NCBI GenBank assembly: GCA_036253035.1
Contig: GCA_036253035.1_4123.1
Source of the DNA: a phage
Strand: one strand, 5' to 3'
DNA: 64,000 nt
Under the pieces are notes generated by a model. It saw only the letters and a list, made by a program, of their open reading frames with translations. It had not been told where the DNA came from and did not search any database. Each line of letters opens with the position of its first letter. Position 1 is the stretch's first letter. Made by a program: the position numbers and the translations under genes. Below are positions 2,523 to 41,198 of the stretch, in pieces.

Positions 2523-2523
2523 A

Positions 2524-4206: not shown

Positions 4207-4258
4207 GATAACAGCTTTGCACTTCTTTGTCAATACCAAAACGAAAAAAGCCCATATC

Positions 4259-6462: not shown

Positions 6463-6470
6463 AATTCGCC

Positions 6471-7435: not shown

Positions 7436-7620
7436 ACGATCTCCGTTCGCAATGAACTTATATAATAATGAATGTATTGTTCCTGTGAACGTGTTCCAAG
7501 AAAAATAAACATATCAAACTCTGTTCTTTTTAAATTCAATGCATCTTTTGTTAAACTAGTACTGAATTCCCTGTACTTTTGGGTCTTCCATTCTTGATTA
7601 ATTGTCTTGTACATTGACAT
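7405..7620 (-). CDS. small protein, LGTNYQE-family outlier
   Basis: Motif IFLGTRSQEQYIHYYISSL. Confidence 0.5.
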   Translation of the reverse strand: MSMYKTINQEWKTQKYREFSTSLTKDALNLKRTEFDMFIFLGTRSQEQYIHYYISSLRTEIVCKTQGIIKK

Positions 7621-10924: not shown

Positions 10925-11130
10925 CTTCTCAGTACTGATTCTTTAAGTTCATCAATGTAGTACTCTACATATTCTTCTTGTAGGTTTGTTCCGAGATGTA
11001 ACAGTACTCTTAAATCTGCTCTCAGTACTTCTTTATCATCTTCATCTATATCAGACAGTGTTATGTTTAAGAATTTACTTGAACTCTCTATAAGTAATAT
11101 TACTGAATCACCTTTGCTTAAAATTTTCAT
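10909..11130 (-). CDS. LGTNYQE-family small protein
   Basis: Core HLGTNLQEE; coupled. Confidence 0.65.
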   Translation of the reverse strand: MKILSKGDSVILLIESSSKFLNITLSDIDEDDKEVLRADLRVLLHLGTNLQEEYVEYYIDELKESVLRRCKCE

Positions 11131-11338
11131 AATCTCTTTTTGCTTTCCTCGCCAAAAGGTACATATACGATTCTTCGTATTGTGCTTGGTAGTTTGTGTT
11201 TAAGAGTCGAAACAACTTCTGTTCTGCTAGAACTAGTTGCTTATCTTCATAACAACGATAGCGTATCAACTTTTTGTATTCGATGTTGATTACATCCATT
11301 ACTATAAGCCCATGTTCATCATCTGTCAAGTGTTTCAT
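11108..11338 (-). CDS. LGTNYQE-family small protein
   Basis: Core LLNTNYQAQ; coupled. Confidence 0.6.
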   Translation of the reverse strand: MKHLTDDEHGLIVMDVINIEYKKLIRYRCYEDKQLVLAEQKLFRLLNTNYQAQYEESYMYLLARKAKRDYENFKQR

Positions 11339-11564
11339 GTATCTTTTCCTTAATAGTGATTTTAAGAGATTTAATTATACGTTCAACGTGATACTCCTGC
11401 CTATCAGTTCCAAGAAGGTATGGTAGTGCTTGGAATAGAGCTTCCGCATTCTTTTCCTCTGGGGTTTGGTTTGGGTTGTGAGGAAGTTGATTTGTATATC
11501 TCTTGGCACTAACTAATCTCTCGACGTATTCATTATATGTTAAGTATATCATTTCATTTTGCAT
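11319..11564 (-). CDS. LGTNYQE-family small protein
   Basis: Core LLGTDRQEY; N-terminus MQNEMIY identical to next copy. Confidence 0.65.
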   Translation of the reverse strand: MQNEMIYLTYNEYVERLVSAKRYTNQLPHNPNQTPEEKNAEALFQALPYLLGTDRQEYHVERIIKSLKITIKEKIHETLDR

Positions 11565-11784
11565 TTACTTTTTCCTTAATACTCATCATAAGATGTTCAA
11601 TCATATTTTGAACCATAAATTCTTGTTTATCAGTTCCAAGAACGTATGGTAACTTCTGAAACAATACATTTGCAGATACTTCATATATTGATTGATTTGG
11701 AACGAACTTAAGATTAATGTTTTTTGTTTTTAACATCTTCTCTTGAAATTCTTCATTCGTTATGTATATCATTTCATTTTGCAT
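11554..11784 (-). CDS. LGTNYQE-family small protein
   Basis: Core VLGTDKQEF; N-terminus MQNEMIY. Confidence 0.65.
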   Translation of the reverse strand: MQNEMIYITNEEFQEKMLKTKNINLKFVPNQSIYEVSANVLFQKLPYVLGTDKQEFMVQNMIEHLMMSIKEKVNAK

Positions 11785-12000
11785 TTACATTCTCTCATAT
11801 ATATTTTGGGTTAAAAGGTCAATCCAGATTTCCACATATCGTTGTTGGTGTTGCGTCCCTAACAGTACACCCAACTTAGCTTCACACTCTAATAACAATC
11901 TGGTTTTGTATGGTAGACTTTGAAATCCTATTGTAGCATCTAATTTGGAAATTGCATAGTTGATGCGTATGAACCTTTCTTGTAATGTGATGTTAATCAT
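11785..12000 (-). CDS. LGTNYQE-family small protein
   Basis: Core LLGTQHQQR. Confidence 0.65.
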   Translation of the reverse strand: MINITLQERFIRINYAISKLDATIGFQSLPYKTRLLLECEAKLGVLLGTQHQQRYVEIWIDLLTQNIYERM

Positions 12001-12259
12001 TCCTAGTACACCTTAGTGGGCGGGTCATTTGATGAAAGTACAGCTTACCTCTGATTTCCATTAGTAATTCATTTAATACGAGTTGTACCTCTTGTTCTTG
12101 ATAGTTAGTTCCTAGCATAGCACCCATTATCAACTCACGTATCATAATCATCTTCTTGTCGTGTTTGATTTCTTCGCTGTAATAGATTTCGGTGCGTTTA
12201 GTTGAGATTTTTGCACGTCGCTCGTTATATTCATCTTTACTTAAATTGATCATTTTCAT
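11993..12259 (-). CDS. LGTNYQE-family small protein
   Basis: Core MLGTNYQEQ; start moved to ATG of MKMINLSKDEY (track start is TTG within upstream gene). Confidence 0.6.
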   Translation of the reverse strand: MKMINLSKDEYNERRAKISTKRTEIYYSEEIKHDKKMIMIRELIMGAMLGTNYQEQEVQLVLNELLMEIRGKLYFHQMTRPLRCTRND

Positions 12260-12260
12260 G

Positions 12261-12491
12261 TTAATTACCCTTACATTTATTTTCAATACTATTCATGAGT
12301 TCTTTAAGATAGTTTTTTACCTTACCTGCCTGATAGTTCGTCCCTAGAAAGTTGCACAACTCTGCTTCTATGATTTTGATTTTCCTGATATCAGGCTTCA
12401 ATCTTTTGTTATTGAATATTTGAATCCTTATATCTCTGGATGCATTTAAACGTTTTTGATATTCATGGTAAGTTAAATTAATCATTTTCAT
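12261..12491 (-). CDS. LGTNYQE-family small protein
   Basis: Core FLGTNYQAG; N-terminus MKMINL. Confidence 0.65.
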   Translation of the reverse strand: MKMINLTYHEYQKRLNASRDIRIQIFNNKRLKPDIRKIKIIEAELCNFLGTNYQAGKVKNYLKELMNSIENKCKGN

Positions 12492-12706
12492 TTACGTTTA
12501 ACCTCTCGCTGGAGGGAATCAATTAACATCAGTACCGCATTCTCTTGATAGTTTGTTCCTAAGACTGAAAGCATCTTTATCTCATTTACTAAAATCAACT
12601 TCTTTGAGGGTTCAATAATGTGACTATCATAAACGGCCTTACGTGCTGGATAAGTTTTCGCCAGTATAACATAAAATTCGTCTTTACTTAAATTAATCAT
12701 TTGCAT
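12488..12706 (-). CDS. LGTNYQE-family small protein
   Basis: Core VLGTNYQEN; N-terminus MQMINL. Confidence 0.65.
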   Translation of the reverse strand: MQMINLSKDEFYVILAKTYPARKAVYDSHIIEPSKKLILVNEIKMLSVLGTNYQENAVLMLIDSLQREVKRK

Positions 12707-12915
12707 TTACTTTTAACCTCTTTCTGTAGTGCATCGATCCATAGGTCTACATAAGTGTGTTGATAGTTTGTGCCTAAGAGTGTTAAGACATAAAGTTCAG
12801 TTATCATTATATACTTTCGTTCTTCGGCAATTTTTTTATCCTTTTGAATCATTCTCCTTCTGATTCCACAGGTTTGTAGAAGCTTAACATATTCGAAACC
12901 TATTAATTTTCTCAT
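12697..12915 (-). CDS. LGTNYQE-family small protein
   Basis: Core LLGTNYQHT; start moved to ATG of MRKLIGFEY abutting upstream stop. Confidence 0.6.
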   Translation of the reverse strand: MRKLIGFEYVKLLQTCGIRRRMIQKDKKIAEERKYIMITELYVLTLLGTNYQHTYVDLWIDALQKEVKSKCK

Positions 12916-13127
12916 TTTAAACTCACCGACTTCAGACGTAAGCTGCTTAACCATGCGTCTATGTAGATACTTTGATAGTTTGTCCCAATGAAGAGTAATA
13001 GCTTCATTTCAGCTATTATAACACATCGGTCCGCTTCTGCAATAGAATTATCTAAAAAAGTCCACGAGACTTTTCCTTGTATAGTTCTTAACCTATTGTA
13101 ATACTCATGCTCAGTCAGGATTTTCAT
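12912..13127 (-). CDS. LGTNYQE-family small protein
   Basis: Core FIGTNYQSI; start moved to ATG of MKILTEHEY, preceded by GGAGA. Confidence 0.6.
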   Translation of the reverse strand: MKILTEHEYYNRLRTIQGKVSWTFLDNSIAEADRCVIIAEMKLLLFIGTNYQSIYIDAWLSSLRLKSVSLK

Positions 13128-13374
13128 TCTCACGTCTCCATATCTCGGTTCTAATGTGTTGGCAGTGTGCATCGATGAACATATCTATAGATTTGGTAAT
13201 TGCTGTTTTATCAGTGCCTGTCATCAGTACAAGCATCTCTGCCTCACTATGAATTAAACGCATGATATCATAGGGTAATATTTCAGATACTGTATCATAG
13301 TGTTTTTGTCCTAGATTCTGTAATAGTTTAAAATACATTTTGTGATTTAGTCTTTGTTGCATTGTCTCTTCCAT
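13111..13374 (-). CDS. LGTNYQE-family small protein (divergent)
   Basis: Same size and position in array; core degenerated to LMTGTDKTA; start uncertain. Confidence 0.5.
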   Translation of the reverse strand: MEETMQQRLNHKMYFKLLQNLGQKHYDTVSEILPYDIMRLIHSEAEMLVLMTGTDKTAITKSIDMFIDAHCQHIRTEIWRRENENPD

Positions 13375-13598
13375 TCTCTTTGGGCTTGGCGGGTTTTATC
13401 TGATATTTCGTTTCTCAGTGCAGAGATATATCGTTGAGTGAACAGTTCTTGATAGTTTGTTCCAATGAATTTCATAAGATAAACATCACCGTTGATAACA
13501 TCCAATTCAGGTGCACCATGTAATGCATAGTTTTTTCTAAGGGTGTTAAGAAGAGAGAAGAGGGCAGTCTGATACTCAGTGCTTGATAAAGTCTTCAT
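13347..13598 (-). CDS. LGTNYQE-family small protein
   Basis: Core FIGTNYQEL; start moved to ATG of MKTLSSTEY. Confidence 0.55.
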   Translation of the reverse strand: MKTLSSTEYQTALFSLLNTLRKNYALHGAPELDVINGDVYLMKFIGTNYQELFTQRYISALRNEISDKTRQAQREWKRQCNKD

Positions 13599-13833
13599 AT
13601 TTTTCCACAATTCGTTCATTTAGTTTTATCTGTATAAGATCCATTAGTTGTTCAAGATAATCGGTACAATATTTCTCTTGATATTGGGTTCCCACAAAGT
13701 ACAGCAACCATAGCTCATGAACTTTAACTTTCATCTCGTTCCATGAAAGTTCACCGTCATCGTAGATTAGTCTTGCTTCTGGGGTGAGCTTTCGAATTCT
13801 AAGTGAATATTCATCGTTCGTCAAGTGTTTCAT
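13576..13833 (-). CDS. LGTNYQE-family small protein
   Basis: Core FVGTQYQEK; N-terminus MKHLTNDEY. Confidence 0.65.
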   Translation of the reverse strand: MKHLTNDEYSLRIRKLTPEARLIYDDGELSWNEMKVKVHELWLLYFVGTQYQEKYCTDYLEQLMDLIQIKLNERIVEKYEDFIKH

Positions 13834-13988
13834 TTACATTTATCCCTTATTAGATTTGTGAGTGCAACTATGTGTTCATGGACATAAAAATTCTGATGAG
13901 AAGTTCCAAGAAAGTACAGCATCCATCCCTCACTCTGCTCGACTTTTAGTTTAGTATCGAGTTGGTCAGATATGTTAATGAAAACCAT
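13830..13988 (-). CDS. LGTNYQE-family small protein, N-terminally shortened (52 aa, below track cutoff)
   Basis: Manually translated MVFINISDQLDTKLKVEQSEGWMLYFLGTSHQNFYVHEHIVALTNLIRDKCK; start and stop overlap both neighbours. Confidence 0.5.
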   Translation of the reverse strand: MVFINISDQLDTKLKVEQSEGWMLYFLGTSHQNFYVHEHIVALTNLIRDKCK

Positions 13989-14212
13989 TAGTTCTTTTCC
14001 TTTCTTTCTATTTGTTTCATAAGAACATTGATATACTCACCCGCAAACCTATTCTGATACTGCGTCCCCATGAATTCCAACATCCATACTTCAGCAACCT
14101 TTTCTTCAATTTCAGTCCATTGTAAGTACATCATAGTGAAGTAAATGGTGTTCTCTTTTTTTCTGGCACTCTTAGCACGGGCCTCGTATTCAAAGTTATT
14201 AATGATGTTCAT
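13988..14212 (-). CDS. LGTNYQE-family small protein
   Basis: Core FMGTQYQNR. Confidence 0.65.
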   Translation of the reverse strand: MNIINNFEYEARAKSARKKENTIYFTMMYLQWTEIEEKVAEVWMLEFMGTQYQNRFAGEYINVLMKQIERKEKN

Positions 14213-14426
14213 TACATTTGTCCATTATGTAATTAGTGAGTGCAACGATGTGCTCATGAACATAGCCTTCTTGGAAGTTAGTCCCCAGTACAGCCAACAT
14301 GCGAATCTCGGTGGTGTTTATCCTGTGTTCCCTTATAGATAAACATTCTTTTTGTGGAAGTGTAAAATATTTGTTTATTACAGCAATGATAATTTTATTC
14401 TTCTCTATATTACTTAAATGTTTCAT
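14199..14426 (-). CDS. LGTNYQE-family small protein
   Basis: Core VLGTNFQEG. Confidence 0.65.
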   Translation of the reverse strand: MKHLSNIEKNKIIIAVINKYFTLPQKECLSIREHRINTTEIRMLAVLGTNFQEGYVHEHIVALTNYIMDKCNEHH

Positions 14427-14638
14427 AGTTTGCTCCTGACGTATTTCTCAAGAGATGACAAATACTTTTCCTCATAATACTCCTGATAGTCTGTTCCCAA
14501 GAATGCACCCAAAAGTATTTCATTTTCCAATACCTCGGCTAAGTTTAAATCAGAAGTCTCTTCGTATATTATGAGGATTTCAAGTTGTCTGGCAGCGATG
14601 CGTTCAGTATATTGATATGATTTTTCTAGAATAATCAT
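14423..14638 (-). CDS. LGTNYQE-family small protein
   Basis: Core FLGTDYQEY; near-duplicate of next copy (MIIL...). Confidence 0.65.
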   Translation of the reverse strand: MIILEKSYQYTERIAARQLEILIIYEETSDLNLAEVLENEILLGAFLGTDYQEYYEEKYLSSLEKYVRSKL

Positions 14639-14847
14639 AGTTTACTCTTAATGTGGTTCTGAAGTGCAATAAAGTATTCTCCTACATAATACTCCTGAAA
14701 GTCTGTATCCAAAAATGCACCCATAAGTAAATCCTTCTCCATTACCCTTGATAAGTTAAGATCTGCATTTGAAAGGTATATAAGTAATATTTCAGCCTGG
14801 ACAGATTTAAAACGTTTCTTATATTCTTCAGGTGTTAATATAATCAT
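14635..14847 (-). CDS. LGTNYQE-family small protein
   Basis: Core FLDTDFQEY. Confidence 0.65.
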   Translation of the reverse strand: MIILTPEEYKKRFKSVQAEILLIYLSNADLNLSRVMEKDLLMGAFLDTDFQEYYVGEYFIALQNHIKSKL

Positions 14848-15053
14848 AGTTTACTCTTAATATCTTCTATTAAAAATCGAATCCAATCTTGAACATACTC
14901 TTCCTGATGGTTTGTGTTCAGTACAGCCAACATACGGATCTCTGCTCTTGCAACTTCAATTTCAGTTTTAGGAAGGTCTTTGCTGATATCCACCATTAAG
15001 TCCATGTATTTCAAGATAAGACCGTATGATTGGGTTCGTGTTATAGTTTTCAT
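14844..15053 (-). CDS. LGTNYQE-family small protein
   Basis: Core VLNTNHQEE. Confidence 0.65.
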   Translation of the reverse strand: MKTITRTQSYGLILKYMDLMVDISKDLPKTEIEVARAEIRMLAVLNTNHQEEYVQDWIRFLIEDIKSKL

Positions 15054-15250
15054 TGTTTCCTCGTGGACAAAATTTCATTTTTCAATGTATCCACATATTT
15101 CGTTACCCATGCATCCTGATAGTTAGTTCCCAATGTAATCAAAAGGTATAACTCCATTCGTTCTACGTGTGAGTCTGTATTATAAATCTTTGTGAAGTTT
15201 TTACGTAACAGTGCTTGATATTCTTTTTCGGTTAATTTACGCATTTTCAT
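15050..15250 (-). CDS. LGTNYQE-family small protein
   Basis: Core TLGTNYQDA. Confidence 0.65.
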   Translation of the reverse strand: MKMRKLTEKEYQALLRKNFTKIYNTDSHVERMELYLLITLGTNYQDAWVTKYVDTLKNEILSTRKQ

Positions 15251-15444
15251 AGTTTACTCGTTACATCTTCAATTAAATACCAAATCCAATCCTTGACATA
15301 CCTTTCCTGATAGTTAGTCCCAATGAATAGTGCCATAATTAATTCACGCTTATAGGCAATACCACGGTCATGTGACTTATACATTATCATAGCCATGTTA
15401 TTGATAAGTCTTTCGTGGTGTTCTGCTTGAGTTAAAATACGCAT
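15247..15444 (-). CDS. LGTNYQE-family small protein (first gene of array)
   Basis: Core FIGTNYQER; start moved to ATG of MRILTQAEH with AAGGGAG RBS 5 nt upstream; track start lies inside the promoter. Confidence 0.6.
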   Translation of the reverse strand: MRILTQAEHHERLINNMAMIMYKSHDRGIAYKRELIMALFIGTNYQERYVKDWIWYLIEDVTSKL

Positions 15445-15474
15445 AGGGACTCCCTTGAAAATAATATCAATCAT

Positions 15475-15502
15475 ATAATATATGAATTGTATAAAAAGTC
15501 AA
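15475..15502 (-). promoter_or_regulatory. sigma70-like promoter for the LGTNYQE array (TTGACT-N16-TATTAT)
   Basis: Minus-strand -35 at 15497-15502, -10 at 15475-15480; only promoter-like site upstream of the 26-gene array. Confidence 0.5.
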
Positions 15503-15693
15503 TAACATTTTATTCGTAATACCCCTTTATCGAAGTCGCTAAGGTTACCCGCCCTTTAGCCCCCTACGCATTTTGCCATAGTCCAATCCCTTTTATTTTA
15601 AAAAAGTCAAGGGATTACCTATGCATTTTTTTAACGCATTATTTTAAAAACGCCTTGACTTTTTTCTGAATCAGTACTAGATCCCTTTACGCA

Positions 15694-31024: not shown

Positions 31025-31053
31025 TTGACAACTGCATCCAGTACTGGCATAAT
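31025..31053 (+). promoter_or_regulatory. plus-strand sigma70-like promoter (TTGACA-N17-CATAAT)
   Basis: -35 at 31025-31030, -10 at 31048-31053; downstream transcript would carry dyad ACCCACAGGGTGC and end at hairpin 31134-31151. Confidence 0.5.
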
Positions 31054-31059
31054 ACTTAC

Positions 31060-31160
31060 ATAAAGACGAGATAGTCACTAACCCACAGGGTGCATAGATC
31101 CGTCTATTAAATGATTCAGTACTGCAAAATAAAGGGGATCGTTTGATCCCCTCTGTATTA
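31060..31160 (+). ncRNA. candidate small non-coding RNA (~100 nt)
   Basis: Region between plus-strand promoter and hairpin/U-rich tract; no ORF; contains family dyad motif. Confidence 0.3.
31134..31151. terminator. bidirectional terminator hairpin
   Basis: GGGGATCGTTTGATCCCC flanked by A/T-rich tracts on both sides; downstream of minus gene 31158..31379. Confidence 0.5.
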
Positions 31161-31379
31161 CTTAGTAAGATATAAACAAAAATCACCTTTCTTTGCTACG
31201 CCGCCAGTGTAACGCGATGAATAGTTAGAAACGTCTTGCACTTCTGCAATGACGAGCGTATCATCATTTATTTCGTCGCAAAAACATACTGCGGGATCTT
31301 CTACGCCAATATTGTCAGCATGTGCCCGCATAGATTTAACCAGTGCTTCAAGCTGGGAAAGAGTAGTGATATTAGCCAT
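31158..31379 (-). CDS. hypothetical protein (73 aa)
   Basis: ATG with AAGGAG RBS; hairpin; TTGCAA-N16-TATAAT. Confidence 0.6.
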   Translation of the reverse strand: MANITTLSQLEALVKSMRAHADNIGVEDPAVCFCDEINDDTLVIAEVQDVSNYSSRYTGGVAKKGDFCLYLTK

Positions 31380-33945: not shown

Positions 33946-34308
33946 TTATTCGTAAATCTTTCCACTATCAGCCCATACCAGGAAACGAGGCATATTATCC
34001 CATGCATCTTGTTTTAAGTTTAAGCCGTGCAATACTTCTGTACTTTCCATTCCTGGTACTGGCTTGCTATACACTGCAAACATTTCGCCCATGTACTGAT
34101 AAGCCATCGTTAAATCAGTCTGGATCATCTTATGTATCATTGCGTCCAGCATTGCAGTAGCTGCATACTGTTCACGCTTAAGCGGTAACATTGCAATCAA
34201 TTCCCGATAAGCTGCAATGTGAATCCGTACAGTCTCAGCGGGAAGATCTTTCATCTCTTCACGGAAAGAAACCAGGTTAAGCATGATAGTATTGATTTGA
34301 GTCGCCAT
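33946..34308 (-). CDS. hypothetical protein (120 aa); first gene of early minus-strand block
   Basis: ATG with AAGAGA RBS; hairpin CGGGAGCGTATCCCCCG; TTGCAA-N16-TAGAAT. Confidence 0.6.
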   Translation of the reverse strand: MATQINTIMLNLVSFREEMKDLPAETVRIHIAAYRELIAMLPLKREQYAATAMLDAMIHKMIQTDLTMAYQYMGEMFAVYSKPVPGMESTEVLHGLNLKQDAWDNMPRFLVWADSGKIYE

Positions 34309-34618
34309 CGTTTTAATCTCTTTTAAAAGTGAGTCGGGAGCGTATCCCCCGTCTCGATGTAAAACATTCTACACCTTTCCCAATACTTTGCAAGTACTTT
34401 CTACAAATACTTTTAAAATAGTTTTCTTTCTATATAGGGGAACTATCTTTCAGTACTGAATCAACCAAATCACTACTATACACCCCATAAAACGGCCTCA
34501 GCCGCTTTCTAACGCATTAATACACCTAAGCTATACATTTGCACCGCCACCAGCTAACCAGGGCTTTACGGGCCGTTTAAACGCGTTAAATTATTTTCAA
34601 TTATTTTGTTTTTAGCTA

Positions 34619-34646
34619 TTGACTCAGCACCGAAAAAGCGTATAAT
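34619..34646 (+). promoter_or_regulatory. plus-strand sigma70-like promoter (TTGACT-N16-TATAAT)
   Basis: -35 at 34619-34624, -10 at 34641-34646; reads into non-coding hub carrying family leader motifs. Confidence 0.5.
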
Positions 34647-35086
34647 TACTACATAGACGCGAGAAAGCGGATACCCCTGGGGGGTGCGGAATTACGCCCA
34701 AAATTCATATAATTTAAAAAGGATACACTCCCGCACCTTAGCAGGTCATAGCACTTTCTCAGTACTGAATAATAGTATCATAGTACGCCCCAGGATGGCA
34801 AGCAAATTAATTAAAACTTTTTGCGTTTAGGGTATTGCTTTATTTTTTCAGTACTGCTATAATATTTTCATCAAGTCGAGAAAGACTCAAGCCCACCGGG
34901 TGCATAGTTACGCCCAAAATTCAGTACTGAAAAAAATTTTAAAAATATCCGTCCAGGCCGTTGACATTGCCCCCAGTTTATAAGATAATGATTCCAGATT
35001 CAGAAAAATCTAACTCCAGATACTGCGGGGAAACTATCCCCACGCGGTAGGGGAACTATTGGAAAAAACAAAATAAAATTTTGATT

Positions 35087-35200
35087 TAGCCGTCTATACT
35101 TCCAGACGTGTAACCATCTAGCCGTTTAGCCGTCCAAACGTCTAGCCATCCAGCCATCCAGAAATCTAGCCGTCTAGCCGTCTAGATGGATAGCCATCTT
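35087..35200. repeat. iteron-like direct repeats, ~10 copies of TAGCC(G/A)TC
   Basis: ttagccgtctat / ctagccgtttagccgtcc / tctagccatccagccatccag / ctagccgtctagccgtctagatggatagccatc. Confidence 0.6.
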
Positions 35201-36051
35201 TACTTCCAGACTTCTGGAGGGCTAGACATATCTACGTCCAAAATCCATCCAGGGTAACTACGCCCAAAATCCGTCAGTACTATACCATAGATCTATCTTG
35301 TGAAAGGAGTATTCAGTACTGCCATCATAGCCCTCACTATGTTACCCTAGGAGGATGAAGACTATCATGTAGTACTGAATACTGTTAGAGGGAATCCACC
35401 AGCACAAGCTGGTGGCATAATGCTTTAGATTAAAATCAGTACTGACACCATTCTGTTAATATCAGTACTGTTATTACGATTTTCATATGAGGTTCAAAAA
35501 GATGTACCACCACAGGAGGAACTATCTTTTCTGTACTGTCTCACGACAGGAGGTAGAGTAAATGAATTGTTGGCAGCAACTCATCTCTCTATGTAGAACA
35601 TTATACAGTACTGAATCATAATGTCAATAACTTTCTTTCATTATTCAGTACTGATATTCTTGAGAACTACCCGTCTACAAACATCATTATATCCCACAAA
35701 TCATAAACGTCCCAACGTAAATTTCAACTTTCGAAGATCCAACTTTTATTTCATAGGTACTCCAAAATTTTTAGGATCGAGATTTAGGATGGAGTACTAA
35801 CCAACTTTTTGCTGGAGCCTCAAGGGGTAATGGAATTTTACCCCGAAGGGTAAAAGGGTAATTGTAATTAAGGTGAAAGTAATAATTCAGTACTAATCAT
35901 TGCGTGATTACTTTTGATTACATTTGATGTAATTTGCAAAATGGAAAAGGAGCTTGGAAACTACAAAGTACGGCAGACTTCCTCTGCCTACTTAGTGGCA
36001 TATCAGTACTGCTACGTTCTTGATTAAACGTGAACATTCCTGTACTCTAGT

Positions 36052-36140
36052 ACTCACTACTGATCACTACTGATCACTACAGTGATTATAAATGATTACT
36101 TAAATGTTTATATATGATTACTTATGACTACCTATGATTA
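36052..36140. repeat. short tandem direct repeats (CACTACTGAT x3; ATGATTAC x3)
   Basis: ctcactactgatcactactgatcactacagtgattataaatgattacttaaatgtttatatatgattacttatgactacctatgattac. Confidence 0.55.
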
Positions 36141-36255
36141 CGGGGTTTAGCCTGGGGAGAATCCTAGTGATCGCATTTGTCCAGGCTGAATTTTAACAAT
36201 TCGCCTGTACATAAAGGTTGTTCACTAGGAGCTTCCCCTGTCTACTTGTGTTTAA

Positions 36256-36447
36256 TTACTTCCTATATATAAGCATTAAGATATAGTAGTACTGATTATA
36301 CTGTACATTCTCTTTAATATTATAAGGGTCTATAGCAATCTCGGTACATCTGTTAAATGCATATCTATTAAATGCCAGTGGAATTATAGATCTAATCCAT
36401 ACTTGTTCATTTTCTTTTAGTTTACTTATATAGAAGTTTTTATACAT
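36256..36447 (-). CDS. MHKEYY-family small protein
   Basis: MYKNFYISKL...ILMLIYRK; last gene of tandem array. Confidence 0.55.
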   Translation of the reverse strand: MYKNFYISKLKENEQVWIRSIIPLAFNRYAFNRCTEIAIDPYNIKENVQYNQYYYILMLIYRK

Positions 36448-36462
36448 AGTATTCTCTATTAA

Positions 36463-36645
36463 TTAATATGATAGTACTAGTGTTAGTACTGAGCACAATT
36501 GTTCTTTATAGTTCTTAGGGTATATAGAATCTTTTATGCACTCATTGAAGTGCCATAGGTATAATCTTGGGTCGCATTCTTTATATATTCTTACGGGGAC
36601 GAATGTTAGTTTTCTTATATAGAATTCTTTATGTTCTTTATTCAT
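36463..36645 (-). CDS. MHKEYY-family small protein
   Basis: MNKEHKEFYIRKL... Confidence 0.55.
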   Translation of the reverse strand: MNKEHKEFYIRKLTFVPVRIYKECDPRLYLWHFNECIKDSIYPKNYKEQLCSVLTLVLSY

Positions 36646-36650
36646 ATTAG

Positions 36651-36836
36651 TTAGTGTCTGTATATAAGTAATAGTAAGAATACGTACTGCACATCTTCAT
36701 CTTTAGTATTGAGTACTGTACGTATTGCGTCATTAAACAAGAATATAGTACTTGGGTCATGAGAATTTAAAGGGGTTCTGGGTACGGCATGTTTGTAGTT
36801 CCCTTTAACAAATTGTGTGTAGTATTCTCTATGCAT
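36651..36836 (-). CDS. MHKEYY-family small protein
   Basis: MHREYYTQFVKGNYKH...LLLLIYRH. Confidence 0.6.
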   Translation of the reverse strand: MHREYYTQFVKGNYKHAVPRTPLNSHDPSTIFLFNDAIRTVLNTKDEDVQYVFLLLLIYRH

Positions 36837-36837
36837 A

Positions 36838-37023
36838 TTAGTACCTATATATTAGGGCGAGAATGTAGTACAATTCATATGGAATGTAATTTGGGGTGAT
36901 CGCACACTGTGTATGGTAAATGAATTGTTCGGTATTTTTCTTATCCTTGATATCTATTGGGATTAGTGGTATAAGCATTTGGGAGTTTAGATCCAGATGG
37001 CTTAAGTAGAATTCTTTATGCAT
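36838..37023 (-). CDS. MHKEYY-family small protein
   Basis: MHKEFYLSHL...ILALIYRY. Confidence 0.6.
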   Translation of the reverse strand: MHKEFYLSHLDLNSQMLIPLIPIDIKDKKNTEQFIYHTQCAITPNYIPYELYYILALIYRY

Positions 37024-37032
37024 ATTGTTCTC

Positions 37033-37221
37033 TTAGAATACGAAAGCTAGGTACAGGGTATGATACAGTACTCGATGATAGCTGTCAAAATCTAGTATAC
37101 ATGCTTTAGTGCACATAGTAAAATACACTTTATCATTTTGTGCATTGATACCGCGAGGTTTATCTAATAGATTAGTTCTGAGGTACATTGGGAAATATTT
37201 TGTGTAGTATTCTTTATGCAT
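37033..37221 (-). CDS. MHKEYY-family small protein
   Basis: Start moved to ATG of MHKEYYTKYFPMYL abutting upstream stop. Confidence 0.55.
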   Translation of the reverse strand: MHKEYYTKYFPMYLRTNLLDKPRGINAQNDKVYFTMCTKACILDFDSYHRVLYHTLYLAFVF

Positions 37222-37222
37222 G

Positions 37223-37405
37223 TTAGTACCTGAATATAAGTAGGATAGTGTTATATAGCTGGTCATAACTACTACTATTTTCTATACTTCGTTCTATGCA
37301 GTTATTGAATCCCAGTACTGCCAAATCGTTATCCAGGGGGACTTTGTATCTGGCGTAGTGTTCAAAAATGCTGGGGAGAAATTGTGTGTAGTATTCTTTG
37401 TGCAT
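37223..37405 (-). CDS. MHKEYY-family small protein
   Basis: MHKEYYTQFLPSIFEHY...ILLIFRY. Confidence 0.6.
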   Translation of the reverse strand: MHKEYYTQFLPSIFEHYARYKVPLDNDLAVLGFNNCIERSIENSSSYDQLYNTILLIFRY

Positions 37406-37406
37406 A

Positions 37407-37592
37407 TTAGTACCTATATATTAGTAAAAGGATGTGATACAGTACTCGATTATAGTCTTCAATATATATCGAGGATTTAGTGCACTGAATGAAGTAGTCT
37501 TTTTCGTAGTTTTTTTCTATACCCAATGGTTCTGTTGGTACAAGGTGTTGGAGATACATTGGGAGTTTCTCTATGTAGTATTCTTTATACAT
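37407..37592 (-). CDS. MHKEYY-family small protein
   Basis: MYKEYYIEKLPMYLQHLVPTEPLGI...LLLIYRY. Confidence 0.6.
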   Translation of the reverse strand: MYKEYYIEKLPMYLQHLVPTEPLGIEKNYEKDYFIQCTKSSIYIEDYNRVLYHILLLIYRY

Positions 37593-37593
37593 G

Positions 37594-37776
37594 TTAGTAC
37601 CTGAATGTTAACATTACTACGTAGTACAGCATATATGGATTATCATCGTATATGAGCGTGTACTTAGTACATTGTTGAAACATTATCTTTGCGTGATCTT
37701 TTATTCCTATTGGTTCTGTTGGTATATGGTGCTGGAGATGCATTGGGAGATGTTCCCTGTAGTATTCTTTATACAT
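37594..37776 (-). CDS. MHKEYY-family small protein
   Basis: Start moved to ATG of MYKEYYREHLPMHLQHHIPTEPIGI. Confidence 0.55.
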   Translation of the reverse strand: MYKEYYREHLPMHLQHHIPTEPIGIKDHAKIMFQQCTKYTLIYDDNPYMLYYVVMLTFRY

Positions 37777-38440
37777 AGTTTGTAATATACGTAATGAGGT
37801 GATGCATTTTCTTATTAGTACTGATAAGTTCCTGTACATGTTTTGTCAGATTGTACGCGTTTTTATAGAGTACTGGATTATCGATTACAGTACTGTACAT
37901 GAATAGTTCTTCTTCCTGTAGTTCTTTGTGTTCTAGTTCTTTGAGGAATTGTAGTACTGTATCAGTTTCTTCTGTACGTTGTGCTTGCCAGAAGTGCATA
38001 TTCTCGTGTACTTTTTCTGCATCAGTAGAGTATATGCCACCCATTTGGAATTGTGCTGTATTGACATCGTGGGAGGTGTTACAATTCCCGAAGAAGTATG
38101 TATTCCCGAAGTATAGCATTAAAGTGCACGGGGTATTATCCAACTGCATATTGATGATGAAGGATGCGTTCTTTAGTACCTTTGTGCTCGTATTAGTACT
38201 CAATACTTTTAAATCAGTATTATAGATATTCATATAATGAACAGCTATATTATTTTTCTTCATGTACAATTCAAGGTTCTTTGATACGTTAACTCCATTT
38301 GTACTGGATTTTTCCTTTTTATTTCGTTTCTTTAGTACATTCGGGTGATACGTATATGCAGATGTAACTGATTCTGCCTGAATACTATTGAGGTACTTAA
38401 AGTGCTTAAGGTATTGTTTGCTGTGTGCATTAAGTTTCAT
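37769..38440 (-). CDS. hypothetical protein, EEFFQ-motif family (dispersed copy)
   Basis: Motif EEELFMYSTVIDNPVLY inside the MHKEYY array. Confidence 0.55.
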   Translation of the reverse strand: MKLNAHSKQYLKHFKYLNSIQAESVTSAYTYHPNVLKKRNKKEKSSTNGVNVSKNLELYMKKNNIAVHYMNIYNTDLKVLSTNTSTKVLKNASFIINMQLDNTPCTLMLYFGNTYFFGNCNTSHDVNTAQFQMGGIYSTDAEKVHENMHFWQAQRTEETDTVLQFLKELEHKELQEEELFMYSTVIDNPVLYKNAYNLTKHVQELISTNKKMHHLITYITNYV

Positions 38441-38450
38441 TTGGTTTCCT

Positions 38451-38630
38451 TTATATAGATGCCAGGGCGAGGATTTCCCTGTAGGGATTATCTTGTGTTA
38501 GTACAGCATAAATGCAGCTATTGAGATTAATATTTTTAGTACTTTTTGTTCCTAGTTTGTAGTACTTCACGAAGGTGTCGTACATGAAACGGTCTTTTAT
38601 GGTTATACGTTCTCTATAGAATTGTTGCAT
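38451..38630 (-). CDS. MHKEYY-family small protein (59 aa, below track cutoff)
   Basis: Manually translated MQQFYRERITIKDRFMYDTF...; AAGGAA RBS. Confidence 0.45.
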   Translation of the reverse strand: MQQFYRERITIKDRFMYDTFVKYYKLGTKSTKNINLNSCIYAVLTQDNPYREILALASI

Positions 38631-38638
38631 AGTATTCC

Positions 38639-38821
38639 TTAAATAGCGATTAGTTTCATTACTTCTCTGTATGTGTACTTTTCGTTTTGTGCATCTCTTG
38701 TGACGACATATAGGAAGGTGTGTTTATCTTTTTTGTTCCCGCAATTGTAGAAAATATTGAACTTATTGAAGTTGAATCTTTCGGCGTGTTGTAGTTTAGT
38801 TAAATAGAATTCTATGTTCAT
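38639..38821 (-). CDS. MHKEYY-family small protein
   Basis: MNIEFYLTKL...KYTYREVMKLIAI. Confidence 0.55.
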   Translation of the reverse strand: MNIEFYLTKLQHAERFNFNKFNIFYNCGNKKDKHTFLYVVTRDAQNEKYTYREVMKLIAI

Positions 38822-38829
38822 TTTCTTCC

Positions 38830-39015
38830 TTACATTTCAATAAGTTTAATTACTGCTCGGTACGTGTACTTAGTTGTCAGTGCTTCTTTAATAGAAATAC
38901 AGAAGTAATGTTGTTTGTCTCTTATACTGCCGCGTTTGTAGTACCACACATGGGAGTTGTGACTGTACTTGTCTCTGTCGGATAGTTGTTGGTAGTAGTA
39001 GCTTATATGATTCAT
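38830..39015 (-). CDS. MHKEYY-family small protein
   Basis: MNHISYYYQQL...KYTYRAVIKLIEM. Confidence 0.55.
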   Translation of the reverse strand: MNHISYYYQQLSDRDKYSHNSHVWYYKRGSIRDKQHYFCISIKEALTTKYTYRAVIKLIEM

Positions 39016-39067
39016 TATAATGTAATTAGCCTTACTATATTAAAGTACTCAGTTCCTGTTGCACCTT

Positions 39068-39262
39068 TTAGAACTTAAAGATGAGGTTCAGGATAGAGCG
39101 GTACTTAGTTTCAGGGAACGTATGTTCTATTGCATAACGTGTCACCATCCTGAAATCGTAATTATAATACAGATTATCCTTTCTCATAGGTGGTGCTAAA
39201 GAGAATGATAGCTGTTCTTGTTTGGGTAGTTTACTACAATAGAAATCTTTATGATTATTCAT
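39068..39262 (-). CDS. MHKEYY-family small protein
   Basis: MNNHKDFYCSKL... Confidence 0.55.
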   Translation of the reverse strand: MNNHKDFYCSKLPKQEQLSFSLAPPMRKDNLYYNYDFRMVTRYAIEHTFPETKYRSILNLIFKF

Positions 39263-39464
39263 AGAAATATATTAGTCCTATTAAACCTGAGTACATAATA
39301 TTTTTGTTATTACATTCGATTGCTTCTAGAGTACTACGTATACAATTATTAAAGCAATCTCTGGCGTGTGGTGTATCTATACTTAAAGGTGATACACTCC
39401 TTAGAAACAATTGTTCTTCGTTGCTAAGGTATTTGGTGTAGAATTCTTTATGTTCAGTATTCAT
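39255..39464 (-). CDS. MHKEYY-family small protein
   Basis: MNTEHKEFYTKYL... Confidence 0.55.
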   Translation of the reverse strand: MNTEHKEFYTKYLSNEEQLFLRSVSPLSIDTPHARDCFNNCIRSTLEAIECNNKNIMYSGLIGLIYFYE

Positions 39465-39465
39465 A

Positions 39466-39669
39466 TTAGTACTCGATTAAAAGGGCAAGGATATAATAGT
39501 ATTGCATACTTTCTGCCCCTTGTAAAGCATTTCTTATGATATTACTCCTGTACGAGTTCAGGAGTTTAGGACAACGTTTGTAGTGTATAAAAGTATTTTG
39601 TGTATACAGTAGGCTTTCTCGTAGACCTTTTGTTGGTAGTGCATCGATGTAGTACTGTTCAATGTTCAT
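39466..39669 (-). CDS. MHKEYY-family small protein
   Basis: MNIEQYYIDAL... Confidence 0.5.
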   Translation of the reverse strand: MNIEQYYIDALPTKGLRESLLYTQNTFIHYKRCPKLLNSYRSNIIRNALQGAESMQYYYILALLIEY

Positions 39670-39893
39670 ATAGATAGCAGTACTAAGATTTTTGATAATT
39701 GTTTATTGCTATCCCCGCAGATGTTGCTGTGTAAAATACTCACAATGAGGGTATCAATTGCATTGTTCATCATAAGGGTGCATCCTGGACTATTATAATT
39801 TTTTAGCTCAATTAGCCACGAACTATCCGAGAGAAATTCCCCGTACTCTAGTTCATTTAGAGTATTGAGGTAGTACTTAAGAGTATTTGTCAT
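39666..39893 (-). CDS. small protein, first gene of MHKEYY array
   Basis: MTNTLKYYLNTL...; ATG with AAGGAGAA RBS downstream of promoter. Confidence 0.5.
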   Translation of the reverse strand: MTNTLKYYLNTLNELEYGEFLSDSSWLIELKNYNSPGCTLMMNNAIDTLIVSILHSNICGDSNKQLSKILVLLSI

Positions 39894-39918
39894 GTGTAGT
39901 TCTCCTTATATTCCTTCT

Positions 39919-39947
39919 ATAGTACACCAGTACTGAAAGGATGTCAA
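39919..39947 (-). promoter_or_regulatory. sigma70-like promoter (TTGACA-N17-TACTAT) for MHKEYY array
   Basis: -35 at 39942-39947, -10 at 39919-39924; divergent from plus-strand array promoter. Confidence 0.5.
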
Positions 39948-39959
39948 GGGTTTTCTTTT

Positions 39960-39995
39960 TGTATTAAATATAGTATAATGAATAAGGAGGGATTT
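39960..39995 (+). promoter_or_regulatory. plus-array promoter-like box (ATAGTATAATGAATAA) plus AGGAGG SD
   Basis: TATAAT at 39974-39979, no convincing -35; same module as between all downstream array genes. Confidence 0.5.
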
Positions 39996-41198
39996 ATGTT
40001 ACCTTTTGGAAGAATGATTAAGTACGCAAATATTGCACCAGGTCCAGAACCTGTAGAGTTCTCAGATGTTTTACAACAACATTATACAAACTGTATGTAT
40101 CTACATAACCCAACTAATACTTTATATGGTTATGGTAGTAATAACATGTATCAATTTGGTCTTGGGAATTCAGCAGCAGTTTCGTCATTTACAGTACTTG
40201 CAAGGAACTGTGCAGCCTTTTGGCTTGGTGTTCAAGGTTCATTGATGATTGATTTGGATAATAAAATATACTACACTGGGTCGGTTGGTGCATTTTCTGA
40301 TTATGGAGATGCAACACCTGTTAATGGTTATTTGACAACATGGACTGATGTTACTGTTGCATTTAATAAAATAGGTGTTATGGCTAATATGATCAAGAGT
40401 GTATATATAGGTGAAAGTACTAGAATATTATTAACCGATGGTAGAGTAATTGCGTGTGGAAGAAATACTAATGGTGAATGTGGCTCTGGTAATAAAAATT
40501 CCATCCCTACACTCACAGTTATGACTAATATGGGTGAAGTTACACATATGGCATGTTCATTACAAGGAACGCACTATATCAAATCAAATAAAGATGCATG
40601 GTTTTGTGGTAAGGATAACTTTGGTGAAAGTGGATGTGGTGGTAGTTCTGTTGTATATTTGAACAAATTCGTGATTAGTAATGTAGAACATATTAGTACT
40701 ACATACGATGTTACTTGGTGGTTTACTACTGGTGGGTCTGTATATTATAGCGGGGTTAACAGTACTGGACAAGCTGGTAATGGTACGACTACATCGGTAA
40801 ATCAGCTAACACCAATTAGGAACACATCGGTCACGGTTGATGTAAGTAAGTACAGTACTTTTATTTGTCCAAGTAATATGGGAAATGCATCAATTGGTGC
40901 ACCTATGGCACAATACGCACCATATGTTAGAAGTAGTGGTGCTAACTCATATGGTCAAGAAGGTAATGGAACTAATACATTAGTTAGAACTTGGAATATT
41001 TTTAATCTTAGTGCAATAAGTGGTGGTTATGACAATGTTCTTATGGCATCTAAAGATTGGAGCAGAACCATAATAATTACTAAAGATTATAAATTATATG
41101 CATGTGGTGGCTGGAATGGAAATGGTGGTAGATTGCCAGATGGCACTTATAGTATTACTACACTAACATTAATGCCAACGCAGTTATGGCAACAATAG
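39996..41198 (+). CDS. RCC1-like beta-propeller repeat protein with conserved N-terminal leader
   Basis: Starts MLPFGRMIKYANIAPGP; repeated G-x-N-x-x-G-Q/E-x-G-x-G motifs; AGGAGG RBS. Confidence 0.8.
   Translation: MLPFGRMIKYANIAPGPEPVEFSDVLQQHYTNCMYLHNPTNTLYGYGSNNMYQFGLGNSAAVSSFTVLARNCAAFWLGVQGSLMIDLDNKIYYTGSVGAFSDYGDATPVNGYLTTWTDVTVAFNKIGVMANMIKSVYIGESTRILLTDGRVIACGRNTNGECGSGNKNSIPTLTVMTNMGEVTHMACSLQGTHYIKSNKDAWFCGKDNFGESGCGGSSVVYLNKFVISNVEHISTTYDVTWWFTTGGSVYYSGVNSTGQAGNGTTTSVNQLTPIRNTSVTVDVSKYSTFICPSNMGNASIGAPMAQYAPYVRSSGANSYGQEGNGTNTLVRTWNIFNLSAISGGYDNVLMASKDWSRTIIITKDYKLYACGGWNGNGGRLPDGTYSITTLTLMPTQLWQQ

Follow-up and report, generated by a model that had tools for sequence, protein, structure and literature searches.

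A conserved gene-free region at the chromosome end of an Asteriusvirus jumbo coliphage and its likeness to repeat region 3 of phage T5

A gene-free region at positions 34310-36255 of a 64,000-nucleotide stretch of phage DNA (hereafter the hub and the window, respectively) contains, judged by the mapped ends of related genomes, the physical end of the chromosome; virion DNA would close with 34310-35992, its last 1.7 kb. We consider it probable (roughly 60%) that the hub is a conserved non-coding terminal control region of the Asteriusvirus direct terminal repeat (DTR), similar to repeat region 3 of T5, and not an iteron origin.

Results

Chromosome ends and conservation of the hub

The source phage of the window is an Asteriusvirus jumbo coliphage of the PBECO4/121Q/G17 group; PBECO4, 121Q and G17 show 93-95% identity with the query. 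The ends of the relatives G17, fEgEco12 and fENko-Kae01 correspond to window positions 15542 and 35992, giving a DTR of ~20.4 kb (15542-35992). G17 carries two terminal copies of a 20,668-bp repeat, whose last letters ...CTCTGCCTACT are found at window 35992, and PhageTerm likewise gave a DTR of 20,668 bp for Sharanji (PMC11895373). The ends of fEgEco12 were set by PhageTerm and restriction digests (PMC13070987), and its end sequences are identical to those at window 15542 and 35992. Moreover, the homologous cut position is the PhageTerm end of fENko-Kae01 and the point at which the records of Serratia BF and XbC2 start. Since window 35992 is the right end of the DTR, the hub comprises the final 1.7 kb of the repeat (1.68 kb) and 263 bp outside it. 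The other copy of the hub would lie where the left repeat joins unique DNA. An earlier, sequence-only reading of the window described the hub as separating two gene blocks, a description that is incomplete in that the hub straddles the terminal-repeat boundary. That a physical genome end lies within the hub was the key fact not visible to that reading.

Terminal repeats of ~20 kb have already been reported for these jumbo phages (PMC13070987, PMC11895373). We found the conserved non-coding region at the DTR end described neither in the fEgEco12 and Sharanji genome papers nor in what Korf et al. 2019 say of terminal repeats and G17. The chromosome end within it provides a fixed start point for annotating such genomes.

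We attribute both the lack of genes in the hub and its strong conservation to the chromosome end that sits inside it. The layout is kept in the Asteriusvirus, Alcyoneusvirus, Eneladusvirus and Mimasvirus records examined and in unclassified relatives. The conserved order runs from the rightward, promoter-driven units U1 and U2 through a tandem array, an AGTACT-rich stretch that includes a strong leftward promoter, and a conserved box to the cut-site palindrome (Table 1). The hub core (34850-36004) is better conserved than the neighbouring genes, with 96-100% identity in three genomes and 70-88% in the flanks.

Table 1. Features of the hub, and the left DTR boundary, in window coordinates.
Feature	Position	Strand	Remarks
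Left DTR boundary, physical left end, AGGTTACCCGCC...	15542..15560		Outside the hub; same sequence at G17 position 1 and the fEgEco12 terminus
GC hairpin	34351->34335	-	Upstream of the last early DTR gene (33946-34308, -)
Promoter-like TTGCAA-N16-TAGAAT, AGTAC before it	34393->34366	-	Upstream of the last early DTR gene
U1a promoter TTGACT-N16-TATAAT	34619..34646	+	
U1a, conserved structured unit	34648..34771	+	Alignment A1, 11 sequences
U1b, degenerate second copy of U1	34835..34985	+	Repeat families D2, D13; covariance model 33 bits, E = 8.5e-8
U1b own promoter TTGCTT-N17-TATAAT	34835-34863	+	
U2 promoter TTGACA-N17-GATAAT	34961..34989	+	Kept in 10/10 aligned relatives
U2	35021..35070	+	Bulged hairpin (35021-35049), then conserved tail GGGGAACTATTGGAAAAAA; alignment A2
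Tandem array of 8-bp units	35088..35239		19 in-register units: 14 contiguous, one poor, then 4
Third copy of the ACGCCCAAAAT motif	35248..35273		Repeat family D2; other copies within U1a and U1b
GC hairpin CCACCAGC-ACAA-GCTGGTGG	35397..35416		No T-run; annotated as a terminator in G17; also in fENko-Kae01
Terminator-like hairpin	35437..35470	-	Two CAGTACTG copies, then a T-run
Perfect sigma-70 promoter TTGACA-N16-TATAAT	35600..35627	-	Leftward, away from the chromosome end; spacer carries CAGTACTG
Box GGTACTCCAAAATTTTTAGGATCGAGATTTAGGATGGAGTACT	35756..35798		Sequence kept across genera; 75-190 nt before the end
Imperfect 38-nt palindrome with the physical right end	35961..35998		...GGCAGACTTCCTCTGCCTACT before the cut, TAGTGGCA... 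after it
Tandem repeats just beyond the DTR	36054..36141		CACTACTGAT x2.7, then ATGATTAC-type units
Long hairpin GGGGTTTAGCCTGG...CCAGGCTGAATTTT	36142..36194	+	Ends in its own T-run; fold z-score -2.28

Promoters and structured units

The sequence-only reading held that the hub has no ORF of 60 aa or more, and the largest one found is indeed 59 aa (35621-35800, +). It was rejected as a gene, having no ribosome-binding site and no annotated gene at the equivalent position of fENko-Kae01. Some records annotate ORFs beneath the hub, and these were also discarded; their reading frames are not kept, and fEgEco12 g614, for instance, is broken in the window. A scan for tRNA and tmRNA found none. Searched with the whole window, Rfam had no match at gathering thresholds, and the hub alone gave only two chance-level matches at E up to 5.

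The promoter that the same reading had picked out upstream of U1a was found, together with two further strong promoters, that of U2 and the perfect leftward one. Three promoter sites of at least 11/12 occur in the hub vs 0.07 expected, and 0/500 dinucleotide shuffles reach three; weak promoter-like sites (12 in total vs 13.4 expected) are not above chance. At the place equivalent to the leftward promoter, fENko-Kae01 has TTGACA-N17-CATAAT. Before -35 hexamers, AGTACTTG[AC] is found at 21 minus-strand sites. The many AGTACT palindromes reported earlier number 16 in the hub, a density of 8.2 per kb, yet they are a window-wide feature, with 237 copies vs 20 expected. The window also holds 49 copies of CAGTACTG vs 1 expected, the hub being the densest 2-kb bin.

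The position of the U1a promoter is kept in fENko-Kae01, Muenster, fHe-Yen9-04, Serratia BF and the relatives L017, L021 and L023. U1a itself combines a GAGAAA loop on a stem of 3 bp with a long-range stem (GGGTGCGG/CCGCACC(C)) and a hairpin on the 3′ side, and has a covariance model score of 102.6 bits. Across the U1 alignment, whose 11 sequences come from few lineages and are fitted equally well by two alternative pairings, 89-90% of cells are paired vs 36-51% with the partners slid. Stem 1 shows compensatory changes in 3/3 pairs, whilst the folding energy of U1a is ordinary (z = -1.29). One IMG/VR match to the U1 pattern (L013) proved to be high-GC coding sequence and was discarded. For U2, 94.5% of cells are paired, compensatory changes are found in 7/11 pairs, 1/500 shuffles was as good and the fold z-score is -3.2. 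The U2 tail reads like a ribosome-binding site and start codon, with a mini-ORF of 3-22 codons.

Judged on these alignments, U1 and U2 have the marks of small structured RNA genes, namely a promoter kept in every relative read and base pairs maintained by compensatory change. They are two new candidate structured RNAs. Neither belongs to an RNA family described in Rfam (gathering threshold) and no clean intrinsic terminator follows either. We infer that both may be small RNAs or leaders transcribed by host RNA polymerase.

The tandem array

The roughly 10 direct TAGCC(G/A)TC repeats of the sequence-only reading are real, with 12.4 copies of period 8 found by TRF (35087-35185) and 19 units standing in one register. 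Their description as iteron-like fails, the repeats being contiguous 8-mers and not 17-22-mers. The repeat unit has the consensus AG(A/C)C(G/A)TCT, in agreement with the MetJ operator box AGACGTCT. Pooling of 143 in-register units from 9 phages returned AGACGTCT at every position, with A and C tied at position 3; the units of the window array match it at a mean of 5.84 of 8 positions. A met-box scan of 10 kb of E. coli recovered the metJ-metB and metF operators only, and the same scan of the 64-kb window recovered the hub array only. We infer from the match that the host repressor MetJ could use the hub array as a super-long operator.

Position 3 is C in about half of the array units and A in 8/8 of the natural E. 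coli boxes recovered. Moreover, the array has a 16-bp super-period, which could be the sign of a different binding protein. It overlaps no promoter-like site and begins ~95 nt downstream of the U2 start. Array copy number differs between the window, G17 and fEgEco12 by multiples of 8 bp, and in relatives GTACACCCAAAAT is found after the arrays. BLAST analysis with the array as query found no match in 5,426 E. coli genomes, which is uninformative, the query being too short and repetitive for 28 Gb of sequence. A strict three-box met pattern found only eight stretches in IMG/VR; the three that were read are two perfect GGATGGCT microsatellites and one T5-like contig.

The sequence-only reading had named absence of the repeats from related genomes as a ground for refutation; five related lineages carry the 8-bp array. 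At the same position, Klebsiella relatives carry Fur-box-like arrays in its place, with up to 17/19 Fur-box positions matching. The same array types are found near the ends of T5-like phages and one T7-like phage. The 8-bp type occurs in the T5-like phages AhSzq-1 and Pontus and in a 118-kb T5-like contig, and in T5-like phages of Aeromonas and Vibrio it lies beside LexA, DnaA and Fur-like boxes. Fur-like arrays are common to T5 and the Klebsiella jumbo phages, and the T7-like phage PGT2 has a met-box-like array 40-114 nt from its end. In three phage families, the distance from the array to a physical end is 0.1-1 kb. The hosts E. coli, Yersinia, Serratia, Vibrio and Aeromonas belong to orders with MetJ (PMC4239095), and all array-phage hosts but one are in MetJ-bearing orders; XbC2 is labelled a Xanthomonas phage, and Xanthomonadales are without MetJ (PMC4239095).

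Cut site and flanking repeats

The terminal-repeat boundary falls between 35992 and 35993 within the cut-site palindrome (fold z-score -3.67), where the ends of G17 and fEgEco12 are identical. Conservation drops sharply 12 nt past the cut. The box that precedes the palindrome may be what the packaging enzyme recognises. Beyond the boundary, two repeats had been reported at three copies each (36052-36140). Both are present, with 2.7 perfect copies of CACTACTGAT at 36054-36080 and ATGATTAC-type repeats at 36083-36141; the latter are kept in G17 and fEgEco12, but CACTACTGAT is lineage-specific, missing from both, and was rejected as a conserved element. Relatives have AGTACTG-containing decamer arrays at this position (12 copies of AGTACTGGAT in L023, with L021 and L018 similar). 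The long hairpin that follows shows 96-98% identity in G17 and fEgEco12 and may terminate transcripts that run rightward out of the DTR.

Discussion

The sequence-only reading compared the hub to a replication origin or regulatory centre. The second half of this is borne out: both strands of the hub carry conserved strong sigma-70 promoters, and it also has two conserved structured units and an array that resembles an operator. The first half finds no support in the anatomy, with contiguous 8-mers, no consensus DnaA boxes and flanking ORFs without a recognisable initiator domain. Consensus scans of the hub found no DnaA (TTWTNCACA), Fur or LexA boxes, and Pfam and PHROGs searches of eight flanking ORFs returned unknown-function families only, with no initiator, terminase or ribbon-helix-helix protein.

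In the terminal control region that we propose, the packaging enzyme would recognise the cut-site palindrome and the conserved box, leftward promoters would initiate the early transcripts of the minus-strand gene cassettes of the DTR, and U1 and U2 would be products of the host polymerase. The 8-bp array would serve as a MetJ operator, with Fur-box-like arrays used instead by the Klebsiella relatives, and either kind would place a protein-DNA block, or a sink for the repressor, close to the chromosome end. More tentatively, the tandem arrays found close to the ends of phage genomes with terminal repeats might be interchangeable 'host-repressor traps', which may be for MetJ in phages of E. coli, Yersinia, Serratia, Vibrio and Aeromonas and for Fur in T5 and Klebsiella jumbo phages. 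Such a trap could possibly form a block that governs the stepwise entry of the genome or the processing of its ends; possibly, too, soaking up the repressor could turn on the host's supply of methionine/S-adenosylmethionine or of iron. If the block function is true, these jumbo phages would have a T5-like two-step injection of their 20-kb repeat, and the T5 injection stop signal would be open to tests with metJ and fur host mutants. The array modules common to jumbo, T5-like and T7-like phages suggest a common, possibly exchanged, solution at DNA ends.

The arrays might instead bind a phage-encoded protein, such as the small terminase subunit, an end-binding protein or a ribbon-helix-helix protein, the region being purely a packaging site. 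Their closeness to physical ends in three phage families would fit this, as would the 16-bp super-period, the C at position 3 and the second kind of array, the AGTACTG decamers, immediately outside the cut site. However, the carriers (jumbo, T5-like and T7-like) belong to different families, and therefore a common phage-encoded binder is unexpected; moreover, the unit consensus is the met box, the T5-like arrays sit among clear LexA and DnaA boxes, and the alternative array type fits the Fur box. We find a phage-encoded binder rather unlikely. An origin primed by a transcript or an end, and not of the iteron kind, is less probable again. Here, as at T4 oriF/oriG, U1/U2 transcripts would form an R-loop in the short stretches of AT-rich DNA downstream of them; alternatively, the 3′ end at 35992 would invade the other repeat copy and prime recombination-dependent synthesis rightwards. 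The GC-skew inflection that had been suggested as a check is present, cumulative G-C reaching its minimum at 35763-36500, yet this is not decisive because skew elsewhere in the window follows transcription direction. The minus-strand small-ORF block at 36256-40300 breaks that rule (skew +0.154), which favours such an origin, as do the conserved promoters aimed at the end and followed by AT-rich tracts, and the replication, repair and recombination genes, including recombinase A, listed for Sharanji (PMC11895373). Nevertheless, the exceptional block is ~4 kb of paralogous small ORFs that may have a composition bias of their own, DnaA boxes and an initiator domain were not found, and T5, with the same kind of region, has its origins near the genome centre (bioRxiv 10.1101/866236).

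A classical iteron origin, in which a phage initiator would bind the TAGCCGTC repeats and melt the adjacent AT-rich region, we regard as very improbable, even though direct repeats, palindromes and promoters are grouped in a gene-free region and the skew minimum falls in it. Iterons are several 17-22-bp direct repeats in helical phase, whereas the hub has contiguous 8-bp units with no initiator gene adjoining; the same array type recurs close to the ends of unrelated phages, T5-like and T7-like, without a common initiator, and relatives have Fur-box-like arrays instead. The iteron origins of plasmids and lambda and the R-loop origins oriF/oriG of T4 do combine repeats and promoters in a non-coding region, as does the hub with its skew minimum; the iteron origins differ from it in repeat size and spacing, and in the initiator gene and DnaA boxes that it lacks.

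Among operators, those of MetJ in E. coli share with the hub array contiguous 8-bp units in one register, CTAG at unit junctions and, at metJ-metB and metF, a similar per-unit match (5-7 out of 8 in the hub array). They differ in length (4-unit runs at metJ-metB/metF vs 14+4 units in the hub), and the hub array, for which binding is predicted, is unlike natural met operators in its frequent C at position 3, its lack of promoter overlap and its siting in a phage chromosome end. T7 is said to carry short repeat arrays, SRL and SRR, reportedly described by Dunn and Studier in 1983, with the unit CCTAAAG and a terminal repeat of 160 bp, and its own RNA polymerase is used at the concatemer junction. 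It is like the hub in having short direct-repeat arrays next to or inside the terminal repeat and promoters near the ends, and unlike it in unit, repeat length and polymerase.

By analogy, the hub resembles repeat region 3 of T5, the closest known system, more than it does a replication origin. This presumed injection stop signal region (Davison, bioRxiv 10.1101/866236; annotation AY587007) is 1.2 kb long and lies mostly inside the left repeat, with a 270-bp overrun (bioRxiv 10.1101/866236) vs 263 bp in the hub. Each exceeds 1 kb, is free of genes, occupies the inner end of a long DTR, is dense in direct repeats, palindromes and arrays that resemble operators, and is conserved better than neighbouring genes. 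The two groups are also linked by their arrays, in that Vibrio/Aeromonas T5-like phages share the 8-bp array of the hub and T5 shares the Fur-like array of the Klebsiella jumbo phages. In contrast to T5 repeat region 3, the hub has no DnaA boxes (including pairs in inverted repeats), LexA boxes, Fur boxes or 'DRD' repeats; it has U1 and U2 and carries CAGTACTG, which was not seen in the T5 stretch examined. Moreover, genes adjacent to the hub are transcribed away from it, whereas those of T5 run towards repeat region 3, and these jumbo phages are not known to take in their DNA in two steps. The shared array modules would tie the T5 injection stop signal to the genetically testable host proteins MetJ, Fur, LexA and DnaA.

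A probable terminal control region at the physical genome end

The hub is a gene-free, non-coding stretch at 34310-36255 that forms the terminal control region of a long terminal repeat. The position of the end and a conserved layout are established by comparison with relatives; packaging recognition and early promoter function probably also reside here, as may any role of the hub in DNA entry. Used as a query (1,946 bases), the hub matches 42 phage records, among them the jumbo coliphages PBECO4, 121Q and G17 and Asteriusvirus relatives, with which it shares 93-95% identity. Every element listed in the sequence-only reading is present, and its claim that the region holds no ORF of at least 60 aa was borne out, the longest being 59 aa. 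Tandem Repeats Finder (TRF) recovered the repeats it had described, and its plus-strand promoter was confirmed (see table). A scan of the window for described RNA families and tRNA found none.

Phage G17 was deposited with both terminal copies, and its repeat was derived by comparing the two ends. This repeat is 20,668 bp long, with first bases AGGTTACCCGCC and last bases ...GGCAGACTTCCTCTGCCTACT, and these sequences occur at window 15542 and 35992. The termini of fEgEco12 were set by PhageTerm, with restriction digests in agreement (PMC13070987), and both of its end sequences exactly equal those of G17. Therefore, the repeat in the window spans 15542-35992. Moreover, the repeat of Sharanji, determined by PhageTerm, is equal in length to the 20,668 bp of G17 (PMC11895373). 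Relatives further removed also have an end at the homologous position: it is the PhageTerm end in Klebsiella phage fENko-Kae01, and the records of Serratia BF and XbC2 begin there (...GACTTCAGGARMAGATA before it, TAGCGGMAGGGGGT after it). The hub consists of the final 1.68 kb of the repeat and 263 bp of unique DNA, and the physical genome end lies inside it.

Features of the hub and of the related unit within the repeat (window positions)
Feature	Position	Strand	Support
Third U1-like copy, within coding part of repeat	31025-31174 including promoter; model match 31055-31174	+	25 bits, E = 2.6e-5
Promoter TTGACT-N16-TATAAT	34619-34646	+	
U1 copy	34648-34771	+	covariance model, 102.6 bits
U1 copy (U1b)	34865-34985	+	covariance model, 33 bits
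Promoter-like TTGACA-N17-GATAAT	34961-34989	+	
U2 bulged hairpin	35021-35049		94.5% of cells paired
Direct repeats, 8-bp period	35087-35185		12.4 copies (TRF)
Promoter-like, perfect TTGACA-N16-TATAAT	35627->35600	-	
Imperfect palindrome, 38 nt, holding the cut	35961-35998		fold z-score -3.67; 0/200 shuffles fold as well
CACTACTGAT repeats	36054-36080		x2.7 (TRF)
ATGATTAC-type repeats	36083-36141		TRF

Layout across relatives

Homologous regions were read in the phage records of fENko-Kae01, Muenster (Alcyoneusvirus), fHe-Yen9-04 (Eneladusvirus) and Serratia BF and XbC2 (Mimasvirus), and in the metagenomic jumbo-phage contigs L017, L018, L020, L021 and L023. An order of nine parts is common to all: the final early gene (minus strand); U1, a promoter with a structured unit; U2, a promoter, hairpin and tail CGCGGWAGGGGARCTAATGGAAAA; the tandem array; GTACACCCAAAAT, once or twice; 0.5-0.7 kb rich in AGTACT; the box GGTACTCCAAAATTTCTAGGATCGAGATTTAGGATGGAGTACT; the cut site; and, directly outside the repeat, AGTACTG-containing decamers in tandem, degenerate in the window (CACTACTGAT). 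Within Asteriusvirus, a comparison of the window with G17 and fEgEco12 shows 96-100% identity in the core (34850-36004) against 70-88% in the flanks. Identity collapses 12 nt past the cut, and the arrays differ only by multiples of 8 bp.

Directly outside the cut site, L023 has 12 perfect tandem copies of AGTACTGGAT (6210-6335); L021 and L018 have similar arrays outside the cut, and the window a degenerate version in the same position. Pectobacterium phage CBB carries a 91% identical 43-nt piece of U1b at 3001-3043 (GGGTGCATAG.TACG.CCAAAATTCAGTACT; window 34898-34932). Its U1-like unit is set 1.6 kb into the terminal repeat and is followed by genes, so the layout is not universal.

Structured units and promoters

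An alignment of 11 U1 sequences, folded with RNAalifold, gave a predicted 3-bp stem closing a GAGAAA loop (compensatory changes in 3/3 pairs) and a predicted long-range stem in which GGGTGCGG pairs with CCGCACCC. The proportion of paired cells was 89-90%, versus 36-51% once the 3′ partners were shifted by 1-3 columns; none of the shuffles attained the observed covariation score. Two alternative pairings fit as well as each other, so the fold is tentative in its details. A covariance model found three U1 copies in the window. The third comes with a promoter of its own, TTGACA-N17-CATAAT, whose spacer contains CAGTACTG; a GC hairpin (GGGGATC...GATCCCC) stands after the unit. For U2, 7/11 pairs show compensatory change, matched by 1/500 shuffles, and the folding energy is unusual (z = -3.2). 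Base pairing is maintained in both units. We infer that U1 and U2 are transcribed, because a sigma-70 promoter is kept directly upstream in every lineage. Every lineage also has, 3′ of the U2 hairpin (35050-35086 and homologues), AGGGGA(A/G)CTA then ATG GAA AAA (TTG in the window), which reads as a ribosome-binding site and start codon of a 3-22 codon mini-ORF, possibly a leader peptide. In some phages this mini-ORF runs into the array.

Strong promoter-like sites (at least 11/12 positions) number 3 in the hub versus 0.07 expected, three being reached by 0/500 shuffles; weak sites show no excess (12 versus 13.4 in shuffles). AGTACT reaches 8.2 per kb in the hub and is a property of the whole window (237 copies versus 20 expected), as is CAGTACTG (49 versus 1). 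AGTACTTG[AC] adjoins -35 hexamers at 28 sites (21/28 on the minus strand, mostly within the repeat) and CAGTACTG occupies the spacer of seven promoter-like sites; many AGTACT copies are parts of promoters. AGTACT has zero copies in 1-7557 and 11029-15673 and occurs about once per 270 bp elsewhere, which suggests that these two stretches are modules that differ from the rest in origin or in how they are regulated.

The promoter and hairpin stretch at 34313-34409 is 78-82% identical to ~145-kb phages over about 65-95 nt, and some of the matching records carry a Campylobacter phage label. Possible explanations are an early-promoter cassette common to these phages and mislabelling of the records. 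In the T5-like Aeromonas phage AhSzq-1, the jumbo-phage AAGTACTTGACA promoter form (2390-2445) stands beside a 28-unit array, hinting that non-coding modules are exchanged between phage families.

The tandem array and the question of an origin

In one register, the window array comprises 19 units that match AGACGTCT at 5.84/8 positions on average, and this sequence is also spelt by the commonest bases of 143 units pooled from nine phages (position 3 is an A/C tie). AGACGTCT is the box consensus for MetJ, whose operators consist of such boxes in tandem (PMC4239095). A scan for at least 3 tandem units, each matching at least 5/8, was benchmarked on the 10 kb of E. coli K-12 that surround metJ-metB-metL-metF. 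There it picked out the control regions of metJ-metB and metF (4 units each) and nothing else; in the 64-kb window it picked out only the hub array (14 + 4 units). In Klebsiella-type relatives, GAGAATCATTATCATT arrays occupy the array position and agree with the Fur box in as many as 17/19 positions. A repressor may bind the array. The window hub itself lacks consensus sites for DnaA, Fur and LexA. 'Xanthomonas phage XbC2' (OP292654) has a hub nearly identical to that of L017, with a met-box-like array, and its stated host order is without MetJ; one of the two, the label of the host or the interpretation as a MetJ array, has a problem.

The sequence-only reading had likened the repeats to the iterons of a replication origin. 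The evidence speaks against this: the units are contiguous 8-mers, the hub has no DnaA boxes, the eight flanking ORFs match unknown-function families only, and the array type occurs in phages of different families, where a shared initiator is unexpected. The GC-skew check it proposed gave a mixed answer. A cumulative G-C minimum does lie at 35763-36500, but in the rest of the window, 36256-40300 excepted, skew goes with the direction of the genes. This minus-strand block of small ORFs (tandem, ~60 aa) has positive skew (+0.154), opposite to all other minus-strand blocks in the window, which places the skew switch at the repeat boundary and not at the gene-direction change near 39.9 kb. Both the minimum and the positive block fit synthesis for which the chromosome end or U1/U2 transcripts act as primers; the base composition of a paralogous gene family (36256-40300) could account for the skew equally well, and we regard such a replication link as unlikely.

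Comparison with T5

A sensitive search with the hub, read here as a terminal control region, returned short matches near the ends of T5-like phages (Aeromonas AhSzq-1; Vibrio Pontus, Luma, Dax and pVp-1), one T7-like phage (PGT2, 40-114 nt from the end) and several jumbo phages. Arrays of the hub type, with 8-bp units, have 28 units in AhSzq-1, 15 in Pontus and 7 in PGT2, and in the T5-like phages they adjoin clear LexA boxes, DnaA boxes and one Fur-like box. Repeat region 3 of T5 spans 1.2 kb, mostly in the left repeat with a 270-bp overrun, and is thought to contain the injection stop signal (bioRxiv 10.1101/866236). Within this region are a LexA box (19/20), a perfectly matching DnaA box and Fur-like arrays. 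In T5 (AY587007 9330-9640), 'palindrome D' is the 19/20 LexA box and 'direct repeat C / palindromes E-I' are Fur-box-like (up to 16/19). Of the box types, the preprint discusses DnaA boxes only and 'Fur box' is absent from it (bioRxiv 10.1101/866236); among the papers searched, none relevant pairs 'Fur box' with T5 or the injection stop signal. In contrast to T5, the hub is without DnaA, LexA and Fur boxes, and the genes beside it run away from it, whereas T5 genes run towards repeat region 3. Because of these differences the hub falls outside the strict T5 family, and it is a new form of a known type of region.
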